A program made the translations under genes and the position numbers. Source: an uncultured archaeon (lineage in GTDB: Archaea > Iainarchaeota > Iainarchaeia > Iainarchaeales > 0-14-0-20-30-16). From it: a DNA stretch of 11,803 nt. The DNA lies in contig CAZQQS010000020.1 in the NCBI GenBank assembly GCA_964595665.1, forward strand, positions 1 to 11,803, written 5' to 3'. Positions 1,410 through 11,602 of the stretch are shown piece after piece; position 1 is the first letter of the stretch, and each line of letters starts with the position of its first letter. A model generated the notes under the pieces. That model had not been told where the DNA came from and ran no database searches. It worked only from the letters and a program-made list of their open reading frames with translations.

Positions 1410-2180
1410 TTAAATATTTAATACATCTGGTTTTTTGAATTTAGAATATCTTTTTCTTAATTGTTCTAAAATAAATTCTCTAGAATTAGGATTTTTAATT
1501 CGTTCTAATAAATAATTTACTGCTCCTGGTCTCAAAGAGGATAAATTTGCAATTATAGGGTATGTATGTGCTTGTAATAATTCCAAATATTTTTCAGGTT
1601 TATTTCTACAAACCATCCAATATAATACTTGCTGATCAATATCCATAGGATACATTTCTTCTACATCTATTCTTTTTTCAGCAAAATCGTTTGTAGGAAT
1701 TAAATCGTGATTTATTAATTTAGCCCAATAATCCATTAATTGTTCTAGCTCTTTATTTGATAATTCTTCAAATTTAAAGCTCTTAGTTATTCCTGGTTTT
1801 TTTTCTGTTCCCACATATTTACTATATATTTTTATTTGACCATTTTCTGTTTTAGCATATAATGTTCCTAAAGGAATTCCTGCTCGTTTAATAACTTTAA
1901 TTACATGATTATGAATATCAACTAAAGTATTTGGTGTATCTCTTAATCCTAATTGTCTTACATATTTCCTAAATAATTGTATTGTGCCAGAAGGCGTATT
2001 AAAATCAATTACCTTTTCAGCTACATGTAAATTAGAATTATTTGATAACTTAAAAGAATGTCTATATAATCTGGAAGCGGTTCTAGATACATTAAAATCA
2101 GTTCTTATTTCTCCAGTAGGAGTTACACTTACAACTCTATTTCTTAATTCATGTAATCTTAATTTTCTCGGAATAGGCAT
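1410..2180 (-). CDS. hypothetical protein, 256 aa, Arg/Lys-rich N-terminus, no family recognised
   Basis: A long ORF in a genome where stop codons are frequent, with non-repetitive globular-looking composition (unlike the Leu/Ile-rich antisense ORFs). The ATG at 2180 lies 26 nt from a TATA-like box. There is no TM segment, no Walker motif and no SAM or nuclease motif I can name. The C-terminal stretch TYPIIANLSSLRPGAVNYLLERI could be a helix-turn-helix, but this is weak. Confidence 0.7.
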   Translation of the reverse strand: MPIPRKLRLHELRNRVVSVTPTGEIRTDFNVSRTASRLYRHSFKLSNNSNLHVAEKVIDFNTPSGTIQLFRKYVRQLGLRDTPNTLVDIHNHVIKVIKRAGIPLGTLYAKTENGQIKIYSKYVGTEKKPGITKSFKFEELSNKELEQLMDYWAKLINHDLIPTNDFAEKRIDVEEMYPMDIDQQVLYWMVCRNKPEKYLELLQAHTYPIIANLSSLRPGAVNYLLERIKNPNSREFILEQLRKRYSKFKKPDVLNI

Positions 2181-2210: not shown

Positions 2211-2231
2211 TCTATATTGTTATTTATATTG

Positions 2232-3146
2232 ATGGAAACTGTTTTGCAAATAAAGAATTTAAGAAAGAGCTTTGGTAAAAAACAAGTATTAACTGGCGTA
2301 TCTTTCGATGCTTATGAAGGACAATGTATTGGTTTATTAGGTCCAAATGGAGCAGGTAAAAGTACAGTTTCAAAATTAATTACAAAATTAATTGATAAAG
2401 ATGAGGGTAAAATTCTAGTTTTAAATAAAGATCAAGATAAAGATTTTCAAGAAATTAAGAAATATATTTCTTTAGTTCCTCAAGATTTTGCATTTTATTT
2501 TGAATTAACTGTAAAAGAAAATTTAGAGTATTTTGCAAAAGCATATAATGTAAAAAATTCAAAAGAAAGAGTTTTAGAAGTTATTAAATTATTAAACTTA
2601 TCGAAATTTACAAATACCCTTTCTGGAAAAATGTCTGGAGGGTATAAGAGATTATTAAATATTGCTGTTTCTTTAATTCACGATCCAAAATTAATTTTAT
2701 TAGATGAACCAACAGTAGCTTTAGATGCAGATATGCGAATTAAAGTTTGGGAAGTAATTGAATTATTAAAGAAACAAGGTAAAACATTAATTTTAACAAC
2801 ACACTATTTAGATGAAGCACAAAGATTGTGTGATAAAATCGCAATATTAAAAGATGGTAGAATTATTTTATTTGATTCGCCTAAAGGCATACAAGAAAAT
2901 TTTGCAGGCAATACTACGATAAAATTAGTTTTAAAAAGAGAATTAACAACTAAGACAAAAAGTTTATTAGAAAAGAAATTTAAGTGTGAGTTTTTAGAGA
3001 ACCATATAAACTTAATAACTAAATCTAATAGTCTTTTAGATGCAATTACTGAGATAAATATTTTAGTTGGAAAAGAAAATATTAAATCTTTAGATATTTT
3101 GATACAAACTTTAGAAGATGCATTTGAAAATATAATTAAGGAATGA
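2232..3146 (+). CDS. ABC-2-type (DrrA/CcmA-like) transporter ATP-binding protein
   Basis: Motifs present: Walker A GPNGAGKST, Q-loop LVPQD, a degenerate signature MSGGYKRLL, Walker B LILLDEPTVALD and H-loop TTHYLDEA. A C-terminal extension of about 85 aa is typical of this subfamily. I prefer the ATG at 2232 (METVLQIKNLRKSFG, a canonical ABC N-terminus) over the TTG at 2217 in the ORF track. The TGA stop at 3144-3146 lies 4 nt before the permease ATG. Confidence 0.93.
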   Translation: METVLQIKNLRKSFGKKQVLTGVSFDAYEGQCIGLLGPNGAGKSTVSKLITKLIDKDEGKILVLNKDQDKDFQEIKKYISLVPQDFAFYFELTVKENLEYFAKAYNVKNSKERVLEVIKLLNLSKFTNTLSGKMSGGYKRLLNIAVSLIHDPKLILLDEPTVALDADMRIKVWEVIELLKKQGKTLILTTHYLDEAQRLCDKIAILKDGRIILFDSPKGIQENFAGNTTIKLVLKRELTTKTKSLLEKKFKCEFLENHINLITKSNSLLDAITEINILVGKENIKSLDILIQTLEDAFENIIKE

Positions 3147-3150
3147 TTTT

Positions 3151-4941
3151 ATGTTATCGTTGATTAAAAAAGAATTGAAAGTTTTATTTTCTAAAAAAAC
3201 ATCTTTGGTAATTTTGATATTATATCCTATAATTTTATTAACTTTGTTGGGCATAGGATTTGATAAACAAAATGTAAGTTTGGATGTAGGTATCGCTGGA
3301 ATGAATAATTTTGATTCTAATTTAGTAAATTCTGGATTTAATGCTTTTGGAGTTAATCCAATATCAATAGATTCTAATAGTTCTTTAACCAAAGCATTTT
3401 TGATTTCTCCAATATATATTATATTCAAACCTTTAGAATTGGGAACCTATTCTGCGAGTATTTTTTATGAGAATTTAGACTTTTTTGTTGGGCAAGGTGG
3501 TTTACAACTTTCCGAGAATTCATTATTATATTTATCTAATAAAATAACATTTGAGAAAATAAATTATATTTTAGATCAAATAAATGATTTGCGAGATTTA
3601 TTAATATCTCAAAAAGAAAAACTAATTGAATATGAAGTTATGTTAGATGAAACTTCTAATCAATTAATTGACATAAATAATAAGTTATCAGATATAAATT
3701 TTATTGACTTAAATAATACTTTAGAAAATAAAAAAATTGATTTAACAGAAATATCTGGAAAATTAAACAATTTGGAAGACGATAAAAATTTATTGTTAAA
3801 TGTTTATGAAACTAATAAAGAGTTAATTAAAACTATAGATAATCTATATTTTAGTTTAAATAATTTTAATGTAAATGCAAGTAATTTTAAAAAAGATTTA
3901 ATAGTATTATCTATTTTATTGCCTCAATTAGACGCATTAGGTTTGGATTATAATGTTGATGTTAATTCTTTAATTACTGATTTAAATGTTTTTACTTCTG
4001 ATTATGACGATTTATTAAATCAATTAAAAGATGTAAATACTACTATACATACTTCAAACAATGGTTTGGAAAGTTTTATTTTAGACTTTAATTCTACTTT
4101 TGAATTAATTAAATATAATGTTGAAGATACAAATATTTTAATTTATGATTTGCAAGAAAAATTAGCAGTAATGGAAATAGATTTCAATTATGCACAAACA
4201 ATGCTAAAAGATAGTTTAATAAAACAAGAGTTAATAAAACAAGATTTGAATTCTTCAATAACAATATTAGATTCTTTAATTTTAGATTTAGCTCCAGAAA
4301 ATTTTGATGCAGAAGCAATTTCTAATCCTATAAAAATAGATAAAAAATCGAGTTATGAATTTTTAACTTCGAGAGATATTGCTTTAATCTTTGGAATGGT
4401 TTTGGTTTTGTTATTTAATTCTATTTTGTTAGTAAGTGTTGCTGGAGTTAAAGATAAAACACAAGGTATAGATGTTCGAGAGAAATTAAGTTCAAGAAAT
4501 AGATTTTGGTTCTTATTTGGAAGATTTTTAGCTCAAAGTTTAGTTGGATTAATTACTGCAATAATCATGTTGATTTTTGTAATATTTGTTTTTAATTTCC
4601 CAATATTGAATTTTGGCTTTGTTTTATTGTATTTATTGTTGTCTATATTTGCATTTGTTGCAATTGGTTTATTTATAAGTATTTTTGTAGATAATGAAAG
4701 TATTGCTATATTAATTTCTTTGTTAATAGCGATGCCTATGTTATTTTTATCAGGATTAATTTTACCAACATATTTTATGCCCGAGTTCTTATCAATTTTT
4801 GCAAATATCTTGCCTTTAACTTTAGCTAAGAATGCAATCTTGCATAGTTTAGTTGGCAAGGATAGTTTGATTTATTTAATAGGTTTATTAATCTATATTT
4901 TTGTATTTTTAGGTTTAGTATATTTATTTAGGAAAAGATAA
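3151..4941 (+). CDS. ABC-2 family permease with large coiled-coil extracytoplasmic insertion (YhgE/Pip-like architecture)
   Basis: The N-terminal TM helix (TSLVILILYPIILLTLLGIGF) is followed by a hydrophilic region of about 370 aa (nt ~3262-4377). That region is rich in N/D/L/I/K with heptad-like periodicity (nt ~3560-4300). Five or six C-terminal TM helices follow (from IALIFGMVLVLLFNSILLVSVAG onward). An AAGGAA RBS at 3138-3143 lies 7 nt upstream of the ATG, and the gene is coupled to the upstream ATPase. Confidence 0.85.
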   Translation: MLSLIKKELKVLFSKKTSLVILILYPIILLTLLGIGFDKQNVSLDVGIAGMNNFDSNLVNSGFNAFGVNPISIDSNSSLTKAFLISPIYIIFKPLELGTYSASIFYENLDFFVGQGGLQLSENSLLYLSNKITFEKINYILDQINDLRDLLISQKEKLIEYEVMLDETSNQLIDINNKLSDINFIDLNNTLENKKIDLTEISGKLNNLEDDKNLLLNVYETNKELIKTIDNLYFSLNNFNVNASNFKKDLIVLSILLPQLDALGLDYNVDVNSLITDLNVFTSDYDDLLNQLKDVNTTIHTSNNGLESFILDFNSTFELIKYNVEDTNILIYDLQEKLAVMEIDFNYAQTMLKDSLIKQELIKQDLNSSITILDSLILDLAPENFDAEAISNPIKIDKKSSYEFLTSRDIALIFGMVLVLLFNSILLVSVAGVKDKTQGIDVREKLSSRNRFWFLFGRFLAQSLVGLITAIIMLIFVIFVFNFPILNFGFVLLYLLLSIFAFVAIGLFISIFVDNESIAILISLLIAMPMLFLSGLILPTYFMPEFLSIFANILPLTLAKNAILHSLVGKDSLIYLIGLLIYIFVFLGLVYLFRKR

Positions 4942-7182
4942 TTAGTAATCAAATAATCCTTTTTGTAATTTAGCTTCTGTTTTAATTTTTTTATTTGTTA
5001 CTTTTAATGTTGCTTTTGATTGGTCTTTTTTTAATAATTTTTTTTCATTGTTTTCTTTTGGGATAAAAACAGAGTTAATATCAAATTCAACTTTTAAATG
5101 TTCTAAAAGTTTTTGTGCAACTTTTAATCCCAAAATGTTAATTAACATTTGTGGATCAGAATTTTTAATATCATAAATAGTTTTAAATTTATTAGTATAT
5201 AGTTTACGTGCTCTTGCTCTTCCAATATTTGGCAATTCAATTAATAATAATAATTCTTCTTTAATTCCTTGTTTAATTCTTTTTTGGATTTTAATTGCTT
5301 GTTTTGTAATTATATCTTTATTTAATATTTTTGCTAATTCAGAAATTGCATAAGCAATCCATTCTGCAATAAATACTTTATTATGAAGTATTCCTGGTAA
5401 TAAATTATAATTGTCTAACAAATCTTGTTCTGAAGTTTCACTAATCCATTCTAAAAATATTTTACAAGTAAAATATTTTTCTAGGATTTCATAGTCATCA
5501 TATAATTCTGCAGAAAATAAACCAAATTCTTTATAATTTTCTTGCAAGTCTAATTCCAAATCTTGTTGTTTAGTTTTAGAAGGCATAATCCAAGGCCTTA
5601 ATTCTAATGTATTAACAATTAACATTAATAGTTCTTTATCTGTTAATTCATCAAATACATTTAATTTTGTAATTATATTATTTGCACTTAAAGGATCAAT
5701 ATACAATTCTGAAACTCTTCTTCCCAATTCAGTTATTTTTACAAATTTATTTTCTATTCTTATAAAATTATATAATTCCAATTCTCTTAATATTGTTTCT
5801 ATTTTATAAAATAAATTATTTAAATCTTGAAATCTTATTGCATAAAAAGTATTTTTGAAGAATTTTTCTAATGATTCATCATTATAAATAAATTCATTTG
5901 CAATTAAAGATAAAATCATTGTTCTCAATGTTGGGATATATCCTAATTGTGAATCTACTTCTTCTGGAGAAGCATTTACATATCTTTCAAATAAGGATTC
6001 TACATCTAATTCATCCTTTGCAATTAATAAAGATTCTCCTTCGTTATCCAAACCTTTTCTTCCAGCTCTTCCAGACATTTGCAAATATTCTTTTATTGGA
6101 ATTGGGTGCATTCCAGAAGCTCCATGTCTATAGGTAGTATGGATGATAACTCTATATGCCGGTAAATTAACTCCTGCAGCCAATGTTGGAGTACTTACTA
6201 TAATTTTTATGTGCCCTAATTTAAATAATTCTTCAATACTATTTCTTAATGGTTCTCTTAATCCTGCATGATGAAATGCAATGCCATTTAACATATTATT
6301 AACAGTTTCTCTATCATAATCTGTTTGAATGTAATTATCAATTTCATTAATTGTTTTTGCGATTATTTTCTTATTTTCCAAAGATAAATATTTTTTAGTA
6401 ATATTTTGTAATTTTTTTGACAACCCTTCAGATGTTTTTCTTGTGTTTGTAAAAATCAATGCTTGTTTATTTTTTTCTAAAGTATCAAAAACAATACTTT
6501 CTAAAGATGAATTTTTTGTTTCTATTAAATATTTTCTTTCTTGCAAAGTAATTTCATTATCTAAAATAACTCCCTTATCTAATTTTACTGGCCTATATTC
6601 TGAATAAATTAATTTTGCATTTAACCAAGAGGCTAATTCTTTGGCATTTGGAATCGTAGCGCTTAATCCTATAACTTGCAAATTTTTTATAGTTAACATT
6701 AATTCTACAATTATTGTTTCTAATGTTGCACCCCTATCTGAATCTATATTATGAATTTCATCTATTACAATTAATCCTAAAGTGTGTAACCAAGATGCTT
6801 TATGCCTTATTAAAGAGTCTAATTTTTCAAAAGTTAAAAATATTATTTGATAATTTTCTAAATACTTTGCACTCGAATCCAAATCTCCTGTTGATAAACC
6901 TATTTTCAAATCAAAACTTTCATACTTCTTTTTAAAATTCTTATAATGTTCAAAAGTTAATGCTTTTAATGGAGAAATAAAAATAACTCGTTTTCTTTTT
7001 TCTAAAATAGTATTTAGCATGTAAATTTCCGAAACTAATGTTTTTCCAGAGCTTGTTGGACTAGATATAATTAGATTTTTATCACAATATTCTTCATTTA
7101 ATGCCAAAATCTGCATTTCATTAAAATCAGGTATATTATATAATTCTTTAACCTTTTGCAATAGCTCTTGAAAATTAGACAT
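4942..7182 (-). CDS. hel308: Ski2-family DNA helicase Hel308/Hjm
   Basis: Motifs present: Q-motif region FNEMQILAL, motif I SSPTSSGKT, motif II VIDEIH (DEIH), motif III LSAT and motif VI QMSGRAGR. The length and order fit RecA1-RecA2-WH-ratchet, followed by a helix-hairpin-helix domain 5 (LPNIGRARARKLY). A Lys-rich tail of about 40 aa ends in QKGLFDY. Confidence 0.93.
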   Translation of the reverse strand: MSNFQELLQKVKELYNIPDFNEMQILALNEEYCDKNLIISSPTSSGKTLVSEIYMLNTILEKRKRVIFISPLKALTFEHYKNFKKKYESFDLKIGLSTGDLDSSAKYLENYQIIFLTFEKLDSLIRHKASWLHTLGLIVIDEIHNIDSDRGATLETIIVELMLTIKNLQVIGLSATIPNAKELASWLNAKLIYSEYRPVKLDKGVILDNEITLQERKYLIETKNSSLESIVFDTLEKNKQALIFTNTRKTSEGLSKKLQNITKKYLSLENKKIIAKTINEIDNYIQTDYDRETVNNMLNGIAFHHAGLREPLRNSIEELFKLGHIKIIVSTPTLAAGVNLPAYRVIIHTTYRHGASGMHPIPIKEYLQMSGRAGRKGLDNEGESLLIAKDELDVESLFERYVNASPEEVDSQLGYIPTLRTMILSLIANEFIYNDESLEKFFKNTFYAIRFQDLNNLFYKIETILRELELYNFIRIENKFVKITELGRRVSELYIDPLSANNIITKLNVFDELTDKELLMLIVNTLELRPWIMPSKTKQQDLELDLQENYKEFGLFSAELYDDYEILEKYFTCKIFLEWISETSEQDLLDNYNLLPGILHNKVFIAEWIAYAISELAKILNKDIITKQAIKIQKRIKQGIKEELLLLIELPNIGRARARKLYTNKFKTIYDIKNSDPQMLINILGLKVAQKLLEHLKVEFDINSVFIPKENNEKKLLKKDQSKATLKVTNKKIKTEAKLQKGLFDY

Positions 7183-7203
7183 ATATATTAATTATTAAAA
7201 GGG

Positions 7204-7211
7204 TTTAAAAG
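7204..7211 (-). promoter_or_regulatory. candidate TATA box for a leaderless hel308 transcript
   Basis: The minus strand reads TAA-tCTTTTAAAcccttttaataattaatatat-ATG. The CTTTTAAA box is centred about 26 nt upstream of the hel308 ATG (7182), and there is no Shine-Dalgarno. The whole spacer to the upstream ATPase stop is only 30 nt. Confidence 0.3.
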
Positions 7212-7212
7212 A

Positions 7213-7905
7213 TTAATTTCGTTTATGCTTTATTTCTACCTTGTCTATTAAGCCATCTTTTATATAAATTATTTTATCAGCATAAATGGTTAAGTTTGGG
7301 TCGTGAGTAACTACCACAAAAGTTGTTTTTCGCTCATCTCTTAGTTTTTTTATTAATTGGATAATATTTGTTGCGTTTTTAGAATCTAAATTTCCAGTAG
7401 GCTCATCTGCAAAAACTATTTCAGGATTATTTATTAAAGCTCTTGCAATTGATACCCTTTGTCTTTCTCCTCCAGATAATTCATTTGGTTTATGTTTTAC
7501 TCTATTTTCTAAGCCAACTAATTTTAGAATTTCTAATGCTGTTTTTGTTTTCTTTTCAGAAGTATTATCGGGAATAGTTGGAATTAAAACATTTTCCAAA
7601 ACTGTTAAAGTAGGAATTAAATTAAAACTTTGAAATACAAATCCAAAGTAATATCGTCTAAAAACAGCTAAACTAAAATCATCTAATTCAGTTATATTTG
7701 TATTTTTTATAATAATATTTCCTTTTGAAGGTTTATCTAATGCTCCTAATAAATGTAATAATGTACTTTTTCCAGATCCCGAAGGACCTAAAATCATTGC
7801 AATTTCTCCTTTAGATATGGAAATATCTGCCTTTTTTAATGCCGGCACTTCAATTTTATCTAACATATAGATTTTTGCTAAATCTTGTGTTTTTATTATT
7901 TCCAT
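7213..7905 (-). CDS. MacB/LolD/FtsE-type ABC transporter ATP-binding protein
   Basis: Motifs present: Walker A GPSGSGKST, Q-loop FVFQSFNL, signature LSGGERQRVSIARAL, Walker B IVFADEPTGNLD and H-loop VVTHD. A GGTGAT RBS (complement of 7911-7916) lies inside the 3' end of padR. The gap between the padR stop and this ATG is 2 nt. Confidence 0.94.
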   Translation of the reverse strand: MEIIKTQDLAKIYMLDKIEVPALKKADISISKGEIAMILGPSGSGKSTLLHLLGALDKPSKGNIIIKNTNITELDDFSLAVFRRYYFGFVFQSFNLIPTLTVLENVLIPTIPDNTSEKKTKTALEILKLVGLENRVKHKPNELSGGERQRVSIARALINNPEIVFADEPTGNLDSKNATNIIQLIKKLRDERKTTFVVVTHDPNLTIYADKIIYIKDGLIDKVEIKHKRN

Positions 7906-7907
7906 TA

Positions 7908-8429
7908 TTAATCACCATATTTTTGATTTATTTTTTTTATGATTTCAAAAGAATTTTTTAAACTCTTTCTAAATTCTTCAATATCTTTTTTTGTTAATCT
8001 TTTTTTAGAATAATTTTTTAAAAAATTATAGGTATCTAAAATATATTCTTTAGTAATATCTCCAGATAATTTGTAATATAGTGTTTGTAACCTCATAAAT
8101 TCTTCTGGTTCTACAGAAATATTTAAACTTTTCCAAGCGTTTATTGCGTTTTTTTCAAATTCTTTTGCGCTTTTAGAAAAATTATCTAAATAATTCAAAC
8201 CTTCTTTAGTAATTGAATATTCTTTCTTTTTTCCAGTTTTTATTTTTATTTGTTTTTTTTCTAACAAATCTTCTAATGCAGGATAAATTGATCCAAAACT
8301 AGGTTTAAACGTATTTTGCGATAATTCAATTATTTTTTTTCGTATTCCATAAGTATGTAAAGGTGTTTCTTTAATTACCAACAATATTAAATATTTTAAT
8401 TTTCCTTTTAAGAATACACAATTGTCCAT
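7908..8429 (-). CDS. PadR-family transcriptional regulator (long subtype with C-terminal helical domain)
   Basis: The N-terminal winged-HTH matches the PadR pattern: LKGKLKYLILLVIKETPLHTYGIRKKIIELSQNTFKPSFGSIYPALEDLLEKKQIKIKTGKKKEYSITKEGLNYL. A helical C-terminal half of about 80 aa follows. A GAGTGA SD-like element lies 5 nt upstream of the ATG. Confidence 0.88.
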   Translation of the reverse strand: MDNCVFLKGKLKYLILLVIKETPLHTYGIRKKIIELSQNTFKPSFGSIYPALEDLLEKKQIKIKTGKKKEYSITKEGLNYLDNFSKSAKEFEKNAINAWKSLNISVEPEEFMRLQTLYYKLSGDITKEYILDTYNFLKNYSKKRLTKKDIEEFRKSLKNSFEIIKKINQKYGD

Positions 8430-8441
8430 ATTATCACTCGT

Positions 8442-8457
8442 TATAGATATATCTATA
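8442..8457. promoter_or_regulatory. perfect 16-bp palindrome TATAGATATATCTATA, candidate PadR operator
   Basis: The sequence was read directly and is its own reverse complement. It lies 13-28 nt upstream of the padR ATG, in the 84-bp spacer between the divergent padR-ATPase unit and the surface-protein/permease unit. PadR dimers bind inverted repeats. Confidence 0.45.
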
Positions 8458-8465
8458 CCGATATG

Positions 8466-8473
8466 TTTATAAA
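8466..8473. promoter_or_regulatory. palindromic TTTATAAA, candidate shared TATA box of the divergent padR / surface-protein promoters
   Basis: A transcription start about 26 nt to either side of the box centre would give a leader of about 14 nt carrying GAGTGA for padR. It would give a leader of about 18 nt carrying GGAGG (8502-8506) for the gene starting at 8514. This is a geometric argument only. Confidence 0.3.
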
Positions 8474-8513
8474 TTATTTGAATCTATTTATTTTATTGTT
8501 TGGAGGAATTATA

Positions 8514-9722
8514 ATGTTTAATTACAAATTCATTTTTATTATATTGTCAGTATTTTTGTTTAGTTCTGTATTTGCTGTTGCAGATTATGCGTATATTTTG
8601 AGATTGGATAGTTATTCTACTTATCCTACAACTATTTATCCTAATAGCGAAGTGAGTTTGAACTTAACTATGTCAAATATTTCTCAAGCAAATGATGCTG
8701 AAAATGTTACTTTTAAATTAATAAATAATAATTCTAATTTTGAAAGTCTTAAAGACAATGATTTTATAAATATTATAAAATTTAGTCAAACTGGAACGGG
8801 TGTTTTGAGATTTAAAGTAAATGCTAATACTCCTGGGGGTTATTATTCTTTACCTTATACCATAGAATATACAAATAATAATCAAAAATATACTATTGAT
8901 TCACAAGTAACTATTAATGTTTCTAATTATAGTAGATTAAATGTTGTTTTGGATGAATACCCTAAAGAAAATTTATATCTAAATGATGAAGTTAAAATTT
9001 CTGGAAGAGTTTTAAATGAAGGAAATACTACTTTAACTGGTGTTGATTTATTATTAAACTATTCTGCAAGAATTATTCCTTTAAGTGAAACAAGTTTGTT
9101 TTTGGAAGATTTAATGCCTGGAGAAAGTAAATACTTTGAGTTTAATTTTAAAATTCCTAAAACTACTGAACCAGGAATATACGATGTAAATGTTTTAGCT
9201 ACTGATGTTTCATTAAATAGTGATAATGAAAAATTATCTTTGATTATTGAAGATAAACCATATTTAATAATTTCTTCAATAAATAAATTGATTACTAATA
9301 ACGGTTTAATTTTATCTCAAGGTGATGATTTTTCTTTATCAATTCAATTAGAAAACATATCAAAATCTAAAGCTAAATCAGTATATGTAAAGATATTAAA
9401 TTTAGAAGAAATTAATTTTATTGGAAATGATATTGCATATTTAGGATCTATAGATTCTGAAGATACTGGTGCAGGAATTTTTGATTTAATAATTGGAAAT
9501 AAAACAAAGGTTGGAAATAATACTTTACAATTAGAAATTGTTTATTCTGATGAATATGATGTTGAACATAAAGATTACAAAGAGATTTCTTTATTGATTA
9601 ATAAAAAGAAAGCTTCTAATGCATGGGTTTCAATTTTAATATTATTATTGATTGCTGGAGGAATAGGATATTATTTTTATAGAAAGAATCAAAGGCACAA
9701 TAAAATTAAAAACATAAAGTAA
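8514..9722 (+). CDS. secreted, C-terminally membrane-anchored surface protein with three tandem beta-sandwich (CARDB / NEW3 / COG1361-like) modules
   Basis: I prefer the ATG at 8514 because GGAGG at 8502-8506 lies 7 nt upstream. This start yields a classic signal peptide, MFNYKFIFIILSVFLFSSVFAVA. The ATG at 8463 in the ORF track has no RBS and would put the TTTATAAA box inside the coding region. Three beta-rich modules of about 110-120 aa lie at about nt 8583-8927, 8931-9257 and 9258-9608. They show CARDB-like strings (e.g. VKISGRVLNEGNTTLTGVDLLL, LMPGESKYFEFNFKIP, PGIYDVNV) and at least 11 N-x-S/T sequons. A C-terminal TM helix AWVSILILLLIAGGIGYYFY is followed by a basic tail. The fold family is judged by eye only. 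Confidence 0.7.
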   Translation: MFNYKFIFIILSVFLFSSVFAVADYAYILRLDSYSTYPTTIYPNSEVSLNLTMSNISQANDAENVTFKLINNNSNFESLKDNDFINIIKFSQTGTGVLRFKVNANTPGGYYSLPYTIEYTNNNQKYTIDSQVTINVSNYSRLNVVLDEYPKENLYLNDEVKISGRVLNEGNTTLTGVDLLLNYSARIIPLSETSLFLEDLMPGESKYFEFNFKIPKTTEPGIYDVNVLATDVSLNSDNEKLSLIIEDKPYLIISSINKLITNNGLILSQGDDFSLSIQLENISKSKAKSVYVKILNLEEINFIGNDIAYLGSIDSEDTGAGIFDLIIGNKTKVGNNTLQLEIVYSDEYDVEHKDYKEISLLINKKKASNAWVSILILLLIAGGIGYYFYRKNQRHNKIKNIK

Positions 9723-9729
9723 ATATAAA

Positions 9730-9746
9730 ATTGGTGAATCTATGTC
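9730..9746 (+). repeat. direct repeat copy 1: ATTGGTGAATCTATGTC (RBS + ATG cassette)
   Basis: This is a 17/17 match to 9800-9816, 70 nt downstream. It contains a GGTGA Shine-Dalgarno, a 4-nt spacer and ATG. Confidence 0.9.
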
Positions 9747-9807
9747 AAAGTTATTAATTTATTTCATTAACAATCAAGAAATTAAAACATATAACAAAGA
9801 TTGGTGA
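9742..9807 (+). CDS. possible 21-codon upstream ORF (MSKLLIYFINNQEIKTYNKDW), or a relic of a duplicated permease 5' end
   Basis: The ORF has exactly the same RBS/start cassette as the permease. Its TGA stop (9805-9807) lies inside the permease GGTGA RBS, 4 nt before the permease ATG. The peptide aligns in register with the permease N-terminus (MSKLLIYFINN versus MSLVKVAFLNN). There is no evidence of translation. Confidence 0.25.
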   Translation: MSKLLIYFINNQEIKTYNKDW

Positions 9808-9816
9808 ATCTATGTC
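9800..9816 (+). repeat. direct repeat copy 2: ATTGGTGAATCTATGTC (functional RBS + ATG of the permease)
   Basis: Identical to 9730-9746. The ATG at 9812 opens the FtsX-type permease ORF. Confidence 0.9.
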
Positions 9817-10942
9817 TCTTGTTAAAGTTGCTTTTCTAAATAATTTCCGAAGATTAAGTCGAACTATGTTGGCTTTGTTGGGAATTATTATAGGAATAGG
9901 AGCTTTAATCTCTTTAGTTTCTGTTGTTGATGGTGTTTACAAGGAAGCATCTGAATCATTAGGTAGAATGCAAGGTTTAATGGTATTCAAGGGTTCAATG
10001 GGCCCAACTAATAGTTTAATGTCTACTTCTTATGAATCTAAGTTAAAATCCGTTCCTGGAGTTGATAAGGCTGTTCCATCTGTATTTAGTTCTATATCTA
10101 CAGTTGATGGCCAGAAAACAAGTTTTGGATTTAGTAGTTATGCTATTTGGGGTGTAAAACCAAGCGATTTTAAATATACTGTTTACAACTCTATTGAAGA
10201 TAATATAATTCAAGGAGATATGATAAAAGATACAGATGTGAAAATGATTTTAATTCCTAAAAAATTTGCTGATGATTATAAGAAAACTATTGGTTCGAAA
10301 GTTGTTTTAAATGATGTTAGTTTTAAAGTAAAAGGAATTTATGAAGTTAGTTCTATGGACAATGATATTGTTGCAAATATTGATGAAGTAATTAAAGAAT
10401 TTGATTTGCCTTCTGATCAAGTAAATTATTATAATATTGCTTTAATTAATCCCCAAGATGCAGCAAAAGTTAGAAATTTAATTAAATTTAAATTCGAAGA
10501 GCTAGAAGCATATAGTCAACAAGATACTTTAGAAATGGTTGGGGATTTATTAGGTAATTTACGTTTATTAGTAATAGTTGTTTCAATAATTGCAGCAATT
10601 GTTGCTGGTGTTGGGATAATTAATACAATGTTAATGTCTGTAATGGAAAGAACTAAAGAAATTGGTACTTTAAAAGCTGTTGGTTGGACTAATGGAAATG
10701 TAATGTTAATGATTTTATTAGAATCTTTATTTATTGGTATTATTGGTGGAGTTTTAGGAATTTTATTTGGATATTTTGGAGCATTTGTTTTAGGTTTAGC
10801 TTCTGGATTATCTGCGGTAGTAACATTATCTACAGTTATTTCAAGTTTTATTTTTGCAGTAGTAATTGGAGTTATAGGTGGATTATATCCTGCATATATT
10901 GCTTCAAGATTAGATCCTATTGAGGCATTAAGAAGTGAGTAA
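9812..10942 (+). CDS. MacB/FtsX-type ABC transporter permease (4-TM, large extracytoplasmic domain)
   Basis: The N-terminus (NFRRLSRTMLALLGIIIGIGALISLVSVV, TM1) is followed by an extracytoplasmic domain of about 210 aa. The FtsX domain then provides three TMs (LRLLVIVVSIIAAIVAGVGIINTMLMSVMERTKEIGTLKAVGW ...). The C-terminus is the family-typical LYPAYIASRLDPIEALRSE. A GGTGA RBS lies 4 nt upstream. Confidence 0.93.
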   Translation: MSLVKVAFLNNFRRLSRTMLALLGIIIGIGALISLVSVVDGVYKEASESLGRMQGLMVFKGSMGPTNSLMSTSYESKLKSVPGVDKAVPSVFSSISTVDGQKTSFGFSSYAIWGVKPSDFKYTVYNSIEDNIIQGDMIKDTDVKMILIPKKFADDYKKTIGSKVVLNDVSFKVKGIYEVSSMDNDIVANIDEVIKEFDLPSDQVNYYNIALINPQDAAKVRNLIKFKFEELEAYSQQDTLEMVGDLLGNLRLLVIVVSIIAAIVAGVGIINTMLMSVMERTKEIGTLKAVGWTNGNVMLMILLESLFIGIIGGVLGILFGYFGAFVLGLASGLSAVVTLSTVISSFIFAVVIGVIGGLYPAYIASRLDPIEALRSE

Positions 10943-11602
10943 TTAATTTGCCCATTTTAAAATTAATTTATAAAATAAAATTCTATCTTCTAATTTAGTT
11001 TTTCTTTTGTAAAGAATTTCTAATTTGTTTTTTGAGATTTCTTTTTGTAAAGCAATTTTTTTAATTATTTTTTCGCCTATGCCTTTATTTTTATATACTA
11101 TAGAAGTTTCAATAGTTTCAATTAGTTTTTTTCTATAATCTAAATCCTTAATAAAAGTTTCAACAACTTTGTTTATACTTTCATCCCCAATATATTCTAT
11201 AGGGATATTAATTTTTTTAAAATCATCTTTATAAGTTTTATCACTAATACTTTTGAATTTGTGTAACCAAAAAGTTTTATTAATAAATTTTTTGATTTTA
11301 TTATTTTCAATAAATGAATTTGCATCTTTTTCTACTTTTTCCCAACTTTGAATTTTATCTAATGTAGAATTATAATCCTCCATTATAGAATGCAATTCTT
11401 TTTTAATTATGTCTTTTGAAGGATATACAATTTTAAATAAAATATCTTTTTTGGCTTTAATTATTCCACCTTCATTAAGATATTTAGAAATACTCTCTTT
11501 TTCTATTAAAGATAGTTTCTTAATTTCTGAGAAATTCTCTAATTCACTTAAGGTATTAAATAAATCCATATAAGATAAAATCATAGTTATGCTTTTAAAC
11601 AT
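10943..11602 (-). CDS. hypothetical protein, up to 219 aa, Lys/Glu/Ile-rich, predicted helical and cytoplasmic
   Basis: A long ORF with no TM segment and no motif I recognise. The start is uncertain, with candidate ATGs at 11602, 11584 and 11569. A TTTAAAA box (11592-11599) is centred about 26 nt upstream of 11569, which would fit a leaderless MDLFNTLSELENF... N-terminus. Confidence 0.6.
   Translation of the reverse strand: MFKSITMILSYMDLFNTLSELENFSEIKKLSLIEKESISKYLNEGGIIKAKKDILFKIVYPSKDIIKKELHSIMEDYNSTLDKIQSWEKVEKDANSFIENNKIKKFINKTFWLHKFKSISDKTYKDDFKKINIPIEYIGDESINKVVETFIKDLDYRKKLIETIETSIVYKNKGIGEKIIKKIALQKEISKNKLEILYKRKTKLEDRILFYKLILKWAN

Follow-up and report, generated by a model that had tools for sequence, protein, structure and literature searches.

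To our knowledge, type VII (MacB-like) ATP-binding cassette (ABC) systems are understood in bacteria only, and we know of no archaeal member with a known function or partner. For more than 20 years the archaeal nucleotide-binding domain (NBD) MJ0796 has served as a structural model of ABC ATPases; this LolD-like domain is known to us from studies of the isolated NBD only, and no physiological system is known to have been defined for it. Type VII systems characteristically act with an extracytoplasmic partner, namely MacA-TolC, LolA, EnvC or PcsB, and TesA. Here we describe a four-gene locus in which a MacB-type ABC module stands beside a gene for a membrane-anchored surface protein of stacked beta-sandwich modules, a pairing that we find conserved in distant lineages. 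The locus lies in contig CAZQQS010000020.1 of an uncultured archaeon of the Iainarchaeia, and the window that we analysed is the whole stretch of 11,803 nucleotides (nt), with a G+C content of about 25%.

Two of the four genes are on the minus strand, one for a PadR-family regulator of the long form with 173 amino acids (aa) at 7908..8429, the other for the motor of the system, an ABC ATPase of 230 aa from the LolD/MacB/FtsE clade at 7213..7905. The plus strand carries the genes of the 402-aa surface protein (8514..9722) and of a 376-aa permease of the MacB type, that is, of type VII ABC systems (9812..10942), and a divergent control region of 84 base pairs (bp) at 8430..8513 separates both arms.

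Linkage of the surface protein gene with a MacB-type ABC module

Homologues of the surface protein were gathered by sequence and profile searches, and their gene neighbourhoods were then inspected. Each of the roughly 31 distinct loci has the surface gene (SURF in the gene orders below) directly next to a gene for a MacB-type ATPase and one or two genes for permeases that combine MacB_PCD and FtsX domains. These loci span identities from 84% down to about 20% and belong to Iainarchaeia, Hydrothermarchaeota, Methanobacteriota and unclassified archaeal metagenome-assembled genomes (MAGs). A survey made from the permease side gave a similar picture: 80 metagenome loci were chosen on permease motifs alone, 46 of them had enough flanking DNA to be judged, and a surface-protein homologue was found inside the ABC cluster in 28 of these 46 (61%). 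The commonest order was ATPase-SURF-FtsX, with most junctions being overlaps of 4 nt or gaps of 1-13 nt, and in a neighbour-joining tree the SURF-linked permeases occupied contiguous clades while the SURF-less ones fell elsewhere. Since the pairing is conserved from the surface-protein side as well as from the permease side, gene context gives strong support to the proposed partnership. The preliminary description of this DNA had made its proposal depend on a conserved co-occurrence of the surface protein with FtsX permeases in related genomes, which both surveys bear out. It had also considered that the ATPase might serve a permease encoded elsewhere; this is contradicted by the 63-72% identity of the window ATPase to the in-cassette ATPases of relatives, since an ATPase orthologous to ones encoded in the same operon belongs with this permease.

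Most relatives have two permease paralogues and one ATPase, whereas the window has one permease. In one relative (L035) the permease is one polypeptide of 752 aa, apparently two FtsX units that arose by duplication and were fused, and a MarR-like gene comes after it. In another relative, 59% identical (L006, 2870-3812), the permease is matched over aa 3-50 and 147-376 as two separate pieces and the stretch between them is missing, which may reflect a pseudogene, a deletion or an assembly problem.

The cassette had been regarded as archaeal, but the actinobacterium Trueperella pecoris carries one too (L034, CP063212.1, locus 5293-8437). It comprises an ATPase, a 358-aa two-module CARDB-like protein and a 452-aa MacB_PCD/FtsX permease; the gene of the CARDB-like protein, which has the same signal peptide, beta modules, transmembrane (TM) helix and basic tail, lies between the ATPase and permease genes. 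Searches with broader profiles aimed at cultured or model archaea returned MAG proteins and one actinobacterial protein alone, and no cultured archaeon with the cassette.

The surface protein

Translation of the surface protein starts at ATG 8514, which has a GGAGG (8502-8506) 7 nt upstream and is the position where the homologues begin; on both grounds, the start of a longer open reading frame (ORF) at ATG 8463 was ruled out. An AlphaFold2 model based on a 24-sequence alignment reached a mean predicted local distance difference test (pLDDT) score of 87.9, mostly above 90 in the modules. It consists of a hydrophobic N-terminal helix corresponding to the signal peptide (aa 1-23), three all-beta modules (D1 to D3, at aa 29-136, 142-246 and 251-363) of CARDB-like beta-sandwich type, and a C-terminal TM helix. 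This anchor, placed by the model and by hydrophobicity at aa 370-392 (9621..9689, plus strand), is followed by the basic cytoplasmic tail QRHNKIKNIK. With the model as query, Foldseek retrieved tandem immunoglobulin (Ig)/MG-type stacks at a probability of 1.0, among them integrin alpha legs, complement and alpha-2-macroglobulin MG domains, and SbsB. The signal peptide, the three Ig-like beta-rich modules and the C-terminal TM anchor that had been read from the sequence alone are thus confirmed. The many N-glycosylation sequons claimed along with them are not: the protein has 11 N-X-S/T sites against about 6.7 expected from its composition, and GC-richer homologues have 1-5, so that an enrichment was rejected as compositional and not conserved.

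When 56 diverse members of the family were compared with Pfam at E <=1e-3, CARDB matched 54, NPCBM_assoc/NEW3 matched 42 and DUF11 matched 33, which makes the window surface protein a diverged CARDB member by homology. One of the 56 also matched an LPXTG anchor, which suggests sortase-anchored bacterial variants. The profile of the family recovered 5,596 representatives of 50%-identity clusters at E <=1e-3 and 161 at <=1e-30, and its looser matches shade into generic multi-CARDB proteins. The surface protein gave no Pfam match of the HlyD or Biotin_lipoyl type, and its model is all-beta save for the two terminal helices; as it lacks the domains of a membrane-fusion protein (MFP), any role as an adaptor would be by analogy and not by homology. 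We found neither a lipobox Cys nor a PGF-CTERM-type signal, and most homologues have 0 Cys.

The membrane-proximal module D3 (9264..9602, plus strand) is the most conserved part of the protein. Its identity to distant homologues is about 36%, compared with about 18% for D1 and D2, so that D3 is about twice as conserved, and most of the invariant positions of the family fall in it. The number of beta modules varies from 2 to 5 across lineages, with length classes of about 290, 400, 500 and 640 aa, and D3, the TM helix and the basic tail are retained throughout, the TM helix and the tail also in a bacterial member (P0204). On this pattern of conservation, D3 is a candidate docking module for the permease. 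A base that contacts the permease and a distal part that can adapt are what would be expected of a stably anchored subunit, although such a pattern does not prove contact.

The ATPase and the permease

The ATPase matches ABC_tran in Pfam (6e-34, 118 bits) and has its Walker A, Q-loop, signature, Walker B with the catalytic Glu, and H-loop all intact. Among solved structures, M. jannaschii MJ0796 is closest to it (2.7e-66, residues 3-223). The best family models were those of LolD, DarD, MacB and FtsE, every one of them under its equivalog cutoff; the top NCBIfam model, LolD, scored 250.3 bits where 307.75 would be needed. In some Hydrothermarchaeales (L004, at 4653-5837, with equivalents in L010 and L014) the cassette ATPase is about 395 aa long, compared with the usual length of about 225 aa, and its C-terminal extension matches the regulator-type Pfam family FilR1_middle, which may mean that the motor of this lineage is coupled directly to the control of transcription.

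The permease is made of TM1, an extracytoplasmic MacB_PCD domain of about 210 aa, and TM2-4, which belong to the FtsX domain. Pfam scores were well above the cutoffs for both MacB_PCD (76.6 bits, cutoff 27; 4.4e-21; aa 18-224) and FtsX (77.9 bits, cutoff 25.5; 8.3e-22; aa 255-369), and hydrophobic segments were located at 21-39, 252-270, 297-315 and ~325-355, which leaves a TM1-TM2 loop of about 210 aa. The protein aligns over its full length to A. baumannii MacB (5gko, 6e-28) and also to the Spr0695-type permease of S. pneumoniae (5xu1). Coordinates and Pfam domains therefore agree with the earlier reading that the sole FtsX-type permease is on the strand opposite to the ATPase. A four-TM permease with MacB_PCD between TM1 and TM2, an FtsX domain, and an NBD of the LolD/MacB/FtsE clade are the sequence hallmarks of type VII, and all of them are present.

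Judged by its sequence, the transporter is a type VII ABC system, with LolCDE and FtsEX both ruled out as equivalogs. Besides LolD, neither lolCE (90.9 against a threshold of 362.45) nor LolC (49.4 against 473) came near its equivalog threshold; likewise FtsE reached 196 of the required 264.85, and the FtsX models gave 20-45 bits against cutoffs of 225-255. PADLOC identified no specific defence system, with generic ABC-ATPase and LolE-TM matches for the transporter and none for the surface protein and PadR.

The regulator and the control region

The regulator matches the Pfam family PadR (PF03551; 1.1e-11, 44.9 bits, cutoff 27) over its N-terminal winged helix (aa 15-81), and the closest solved PadR proteins are weak matches only (4esb, 1e-3). 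Its stop codon TAA (7910-7908) is separated by a spacer of 2 nt (7907-7906) from the ATG of the ATPase (7905-7903), and the final two codons of padR make up the GGTGAT Shine-Dalgarno (SD) sequence of the ATPase (7911..7916, minus strand). This arrangement, two genes 2 nt apart with the ribosome-binding site (RBS) of the second inside the first, can be read directly from the sequence, as the preliminary description had done.

In at least 10 distant loci, a padR gene of about 174 aa comes first in the cassette, and PadR also leads it in 3 of the permease-selected loci, a distribution that supports PadR as an ancestral member of the cassette. The regulator is interchangeable, since one locus (L035, 5505-10354) has a TetR-family regulator in place of PadR at the head of the cassette. 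PadR and TetR proteins are typical ligand-gated repressors of efflux systems, LmrR with lmrCD being an example, and sense cytoplasmic ligands directly; the occurrence of TetR in place of PadR thus fits a ligand-gated, efflux-type control logic. In another locus (L030, 10250-10585, minus strand), a second, short PadR gene (111 aa) is found in convergent orientation right after the cassette ATPase, besides the PadR that leads the operon.

The shared 84-bp region does contain the perfect palindrome attributed to it, the 16-bp TATAGATATATCTATA at 8442-8457, which forms the centre of a 24-bp near-palindrome with one mismatched pair (8438..8461) and is a putative PadR operator. It lies 13-28 nt upstream of the padR ATG, where the TATA box of a leaderless padR transcript would be expected. 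Dinucleotide shuffles predict about 0.009 perfect palindromes of >=16 bp in any one stretch of 84 bp. A palindrome with a GATAT(AT)ATC core stands directly upstream of padR in the window, in its closest relative (L033) and in at least 9 distant loci. Of the distant PadR-bearing loci, 8 with 40-61% G+C have the palindrome TGATATATATCA (with <=1 mismatch) directly in front of padR, flanked by a TATA-like GATATATAA (at about -30) on one side and by the start codon on the other, and essentially nowhere else in their 5-13 kb; a motif of this type was also seen in L044 and L109, two independent metagenome loci. The TAGATATATCTA of the window has the GATATATC core in common with them; it is unique in the window and has the same position relative to padR. 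We accept the palindrome as meaningful because of this footprint upstream of padR across phyla. The stretch that bears it differs from L033 by 1 mismatch in the first 78 aligned columns, while the DNA identity of the surface gene next to it is only 83%, and the palindrome was not found in the PadR-less relatives L003 and L006. From this distribution, the window palindrome is probably a PadR operator that is now flanked by both arms.

On the plus strand, TTTATAAA (8466..8473) lies at 9 nt from the palindrome, precedes the ATG by about 41-48 nt and is a candidate archaeal TATA box for the SURF-FtsX transcript; its sequence and position suggest a promoter element. As the palindrome overlaps the likely TATA region of a leaderless padR-ATPase transcript and is near TTTATAAA, one operator could still control all four genes.

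Other palindromes were noted along the way. Longer perfect ones occur inside genes of the window, a 20-bp ATAATTTTTTAAAAAATTAT in padR (8010-8029) and an 18-bp AAATGTTAATTAACATTT in the helicase gene (5133-5150). A different perfect palindrome of 22 nt, GTATCTATTTATAAATAGATAC, is located upstream of padR in a further locus (L088, ~2990-3011); it has the ATAGATA half-site of the window palindrome in the opposite relative order, with an AT spacer of 6-8 nt.

Gene order and a duplicated start region

The widespread form of the cassette is one co-directional operon, in the order SURF-ATPase-FtsX-FtsX, SURF-FtsX-FtsX-ATPase or ATPase-SURF-FtsX, often with PadR first. A divergent ATPase together with a single permease was observed only in the nearest relatives of the window (L003, L006 and the contig of P0016), all of which lack PadR, and the exact layout of the window, with a PadR-ATPase arm opposed to a SURF-FtsX arm, is common to L033 only, which is 84% identical at the protein level. 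Because the split is confined to the window and its closest relatives, it is a derived, lineage-specific rearrangement. The preliminary description had seen in the strand split a defining and mechanistically special feature that ties the motor to PadR control. Neither view holds: the split is not the common form, and since both arms still flank the same putative operator, co-regulation has been preserved and not newly created.

The gap of 89 nt between the surface gene and the permease gene also has a peculiar organization. The start region ATTGGTGAATCTATGTC, which comprises the RBS, the ATG and the first two codons of the permease, is present twice on the plus strand, at 9730-9746 and 9800-9816, 70 nt apart. 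Its first copy opens a mini-ORF of 21 codons (9742-9807; MSKLLIYFINNQEIKTYNKDW), the TGA stop of which falls inside the permease SD. The encoded peptide MSKLLIYFINNQ resembles the N-terminus of the permease, MSLVKVAFLNNF, which suggests a degenerate tandem duplication. The mini-ORF probably relays translational coupling across the gap. In L033 this spacer is 92% identical, above the flanking genes, and both copies of the repeat carry the same C-to-T change.

Other genes of the window

The remaining genes form an archaeal housekeeping set with RtcB, a Hel308-type helicase ('archaeal helicase domain 4') and an unrelated DrrA/ABC-2 transporter. This second ABC system (2217-4941) pairs a DrrA-type ATPase of 309 aa with an ABC-2 permease of 596 aa. 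The N-terminal part of that permease is a long extracytoplasmic stretch (about 370 aa) in which Asn, Leu and Asp are frequent, and the protein shows weak resemblance to YhgE/Pip-family and SagH-like proteins. Two further ORFs, of 219 aa (10943-11602, minus strand) and 256 aa (1410-2180, minus strand), matched nothing in Pfam, NCBIfam or PADLOC. The shorter of them, with 219 aa, is convergent to the permease gene and adjoins its stop codon; it is the least conserved gene in the comparison with L033 (79% nt identity).

A proposed function and its alternatives

We hypothesize, on a modest balance of probability in its favour, that the four genes constitute one functional cassette for an inducible ABC exporter or extractor of type VII that is under the control of PadR and has a bitopic accessory subunit dedicated to it, the Ig-stack. 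PadR would bind the palindrome with the GATATATC core at its own promoter, which in this lineage is beside the divergent promoter of the surface protein and the permease, with all four genes repressed, and a small hydrophobic or membrane-active compound would lift this repression. The surface protein and the permease would be produced in fixed proportion through translational coupling, and the membrane-proximal D3 and the TM helix would dock on the periplasmic domain and the TM bundle of the permease. ATP-driven mechanotransmission in the permease ectodomain would then expel the compound, or extract it, from the outer leaflet or the pseudo-periplasm, while the variable distal modules would reach outward through the envelope and functionally stand in, by analogy, for the MFP adaptor. 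A role in host contact of an episymbiont, which had also been envisaged, finds no support in our results.

Several observations weigh against this hypothesis. The surface gene is absent from 18 of the 46 judgeable permease loci, so this type of permease can work without the surface protein, and no natural fusion of surface protein and permease was found among 10 long members of the family. The window surface protein itself stays under every Pfam gathering threshold (MG2 at 21 bits; NPCBM_assoc at 17.7, cutoff 24.4); the profile check of 8514-9722 against CARDB, NPCBM_assoc and DUF11 that the preliminary description had called for is thus negative for the window protein alone, while the family as a whole does match CARDB. 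The PADLOC and NCBIfam matches are generic and give no clue to the substrate, and the case for a role in detoxification, argued from the type of regulator, is circumstantial. As for the operator, perfect palindromes of >=16 bp number five in this AT-rich window against 1.25 expected from dinucleotide shuffles, on which ground the palindrome was rejected as significant by itself. Two loci (L053 and L055) have PadR and no obvious palindrome motif, and the palindrome, which is AT-rich and overlaps the expected TATA box, could be a promoter element instead of, or besides, an operator.

The alternative that survives best, although we think it unlikely, is an FtsEX-like mechanotransmission with no transport, in which ATP would switch the conformation of the Ig-like protein and regulate adhesion, the remodelling of the S-layer or pseudo-periplasm, or another enzyme. 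Type VII includes pure mechanotransducers such as FtsEX with EnvC or PcsB, and such a function would suit both a dedicated, tightly coupled partner that is conserved in its membrane-proximal module and a cassette without any substrate-related gene. However, beta-sandwiches are all that can be recognised in the surface protein, which shows neither an enzymatic domain nor an activator domain of the coiled-coil type; the examined cassettes have no conserved hydrolase gene nearby, and the FtsE and FtsX scores are far under the equivalog cutoffs; moreover, control by PadR or TetR suggests an inducible response and not housekeeping work on the envelope.

The surface protein could instead be a client, with a Lol-like extractor that pulls the C-terminally anchored Ig-stack, or similar proteins, from the membrane towards the surface or S-layer. 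This idea, which we hold to be decidedly improbable, draws on LolD as best match of the ATPase, on the matches of the permease to LolC/E models, on the two permease paralogues of most cassettes, which recall LolC/LolE, and on the surface protein being an envelope protein that is secreted and anchored. Yet the Lol equivalog cutoffs are missed widely (250 vs 307.75 and 90.9 vs 362), and the surface protein has no lipobox Cys, most of its homologues having 0 Cys at all. Its TM helix and basic tail are conserved as a stable stop-transfer anchor, its strongest conservation is in the membrane-proximal module and not in a recognisable sorting signal, and an operon of one substrate and one transporter under a drug-type repressor would be unusual.

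There is little probability, too, in a Bce-like function in sensing or target protection, where the Ig-stack would be the receptor for an antimicrobial peptide or toxin and the ABC module would free the target or report flux. The solved ATPases closest to that of the window include BceA and PsdA, the variability of D1 and D2 is what ligand-facing parts would show, and the FilR1_middle extension of the ATPase in some Hydrothermarchaeales loci hints at signalling by the motor. Against this, the permease has the 4-TM architecture of MacB and not the 10-TM architecture of BceB, neither a histidine kinase nor another signalling partner is conserved in the examined loci, and PadR and TetR are generally known to sense cytoplasmic ligands directly. 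Lastly, we give almost no credence to an incidental adjacency, with an unrelated surface protein and a divergent ATPase that serves another permease, as it has in its favour the strand split of the window itself and nothing more, against the linkage in every surface-selected locus and in 61% of the permease-selected ones, the overlapping junctions, and a DrrA-type ATPase of its own for the other ABC system of the window.

Significance of the conserved cassette

In the open-access full-text literature that we searched, we found no account, for archaea or for any other group, of MacB-type transporters that have a CARDB-like partner. Two passing remarks come close, and both leave the cassette undefined: SalXY-like ABC transporters are mentioned near membrane-protein islands in Methanococcales (PMC4158269), and proteins with Ig or A2M domains beside 'antimicrobial peptide transporters' (PMC8416519). 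COG1361 proteins are named in the literature merely as putative 'S-layer domain' proteins, and the association may be implicit in COG or arCOG context resources. We therefore regard this conserved but uncharacterised pairing as a variant of type VII ABC systems and not as something categorically new.

The pairing gives a first handle on what MacB-type pumps do in cells without an outer membrane. Our results offer as starting points a candidate partner, a candidate docking module (D3 with the TM helix), a candidate operator, and a permease subfamily that stands beside partner-less sister clades. Should the Ig-stack prove to be a genuine subunit, this would reveal a new way for a pump to reach through an envelope that has no outer membrane, and thousands of hypothetical proteins named for 'CARDB/S-layer domain' would be re-annotated as transporter subunits. 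We advance only tentatively, as a conjecture with the chances rather against it, that the cassette represents a large class of tripartite type VII machines in prokaryotes without an outer membrane, that is, in many archaeal phyla and some Actinobacteria. In such machines the Ig-stack would replace the MFP adaptor, the membrane-proximal module would clamp the MacB-type ectodomain, 2-5 distal modules would match the thickness of the envelope, the exit or working path would lead through the pseudo-periplasm or wall, and a conserved PadR operator would control the cassette.

Comparison with known systems

The layout of the permease, with TM1, a periplasmic core and three TM helices, is the same as in MacAB-TolC of E. 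coli and A. baumannii and in Spr0693-0694-0695 of S. pneumoniae, a MacAB-like system of a Gram-positive bacterium. Their ATPases are of the same clade, and both have an operon-encoded extracytoplasmic partner, which in the window is predicted. However, the window partner differs from that of MacAB, being a bitopic CARDB-like stack with a C-terminal TM helix and not an MFP (it has no HlyD, lipoyl or alpha-hairpin domains); the window ATPase is a separate polypeptide, and there is no outer-membrane duct.

LolCDE supplied the best-scoring NCBIfam models for both ATPase and permease, and most relatives of the window combine two permeases and one ATPase as do LolC, LolE and LolD. In contrast to LolCDE, the scores are far under the cutoffs, there is no LolA or LolB, the neighbouring protein is without a lipobox, and the window has one permease. 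FtsEX-EnvC/PcsB and YbbAP-TesA are type VII modules that act via a specific partner bound to the permease ectodomain. Their partners are coiled-coil activators or a lipid hydrolase, whereas that of the window is all-beta and membrane-anchored, with no recognisable catalytic domain.

For the regulation, the nearest parallel is LmrR-lmrCD of Lactococcus, where a PadR-family repressor is encoded with an ABC exporter and presumably regulates itself via a palindromic operator. LmrCD is a type IV transporter and LmrR a short PadR, while the window combines a PadR of the long form (173 aa) with a type VII pump and a putative operator that has a different core, GATATATC.

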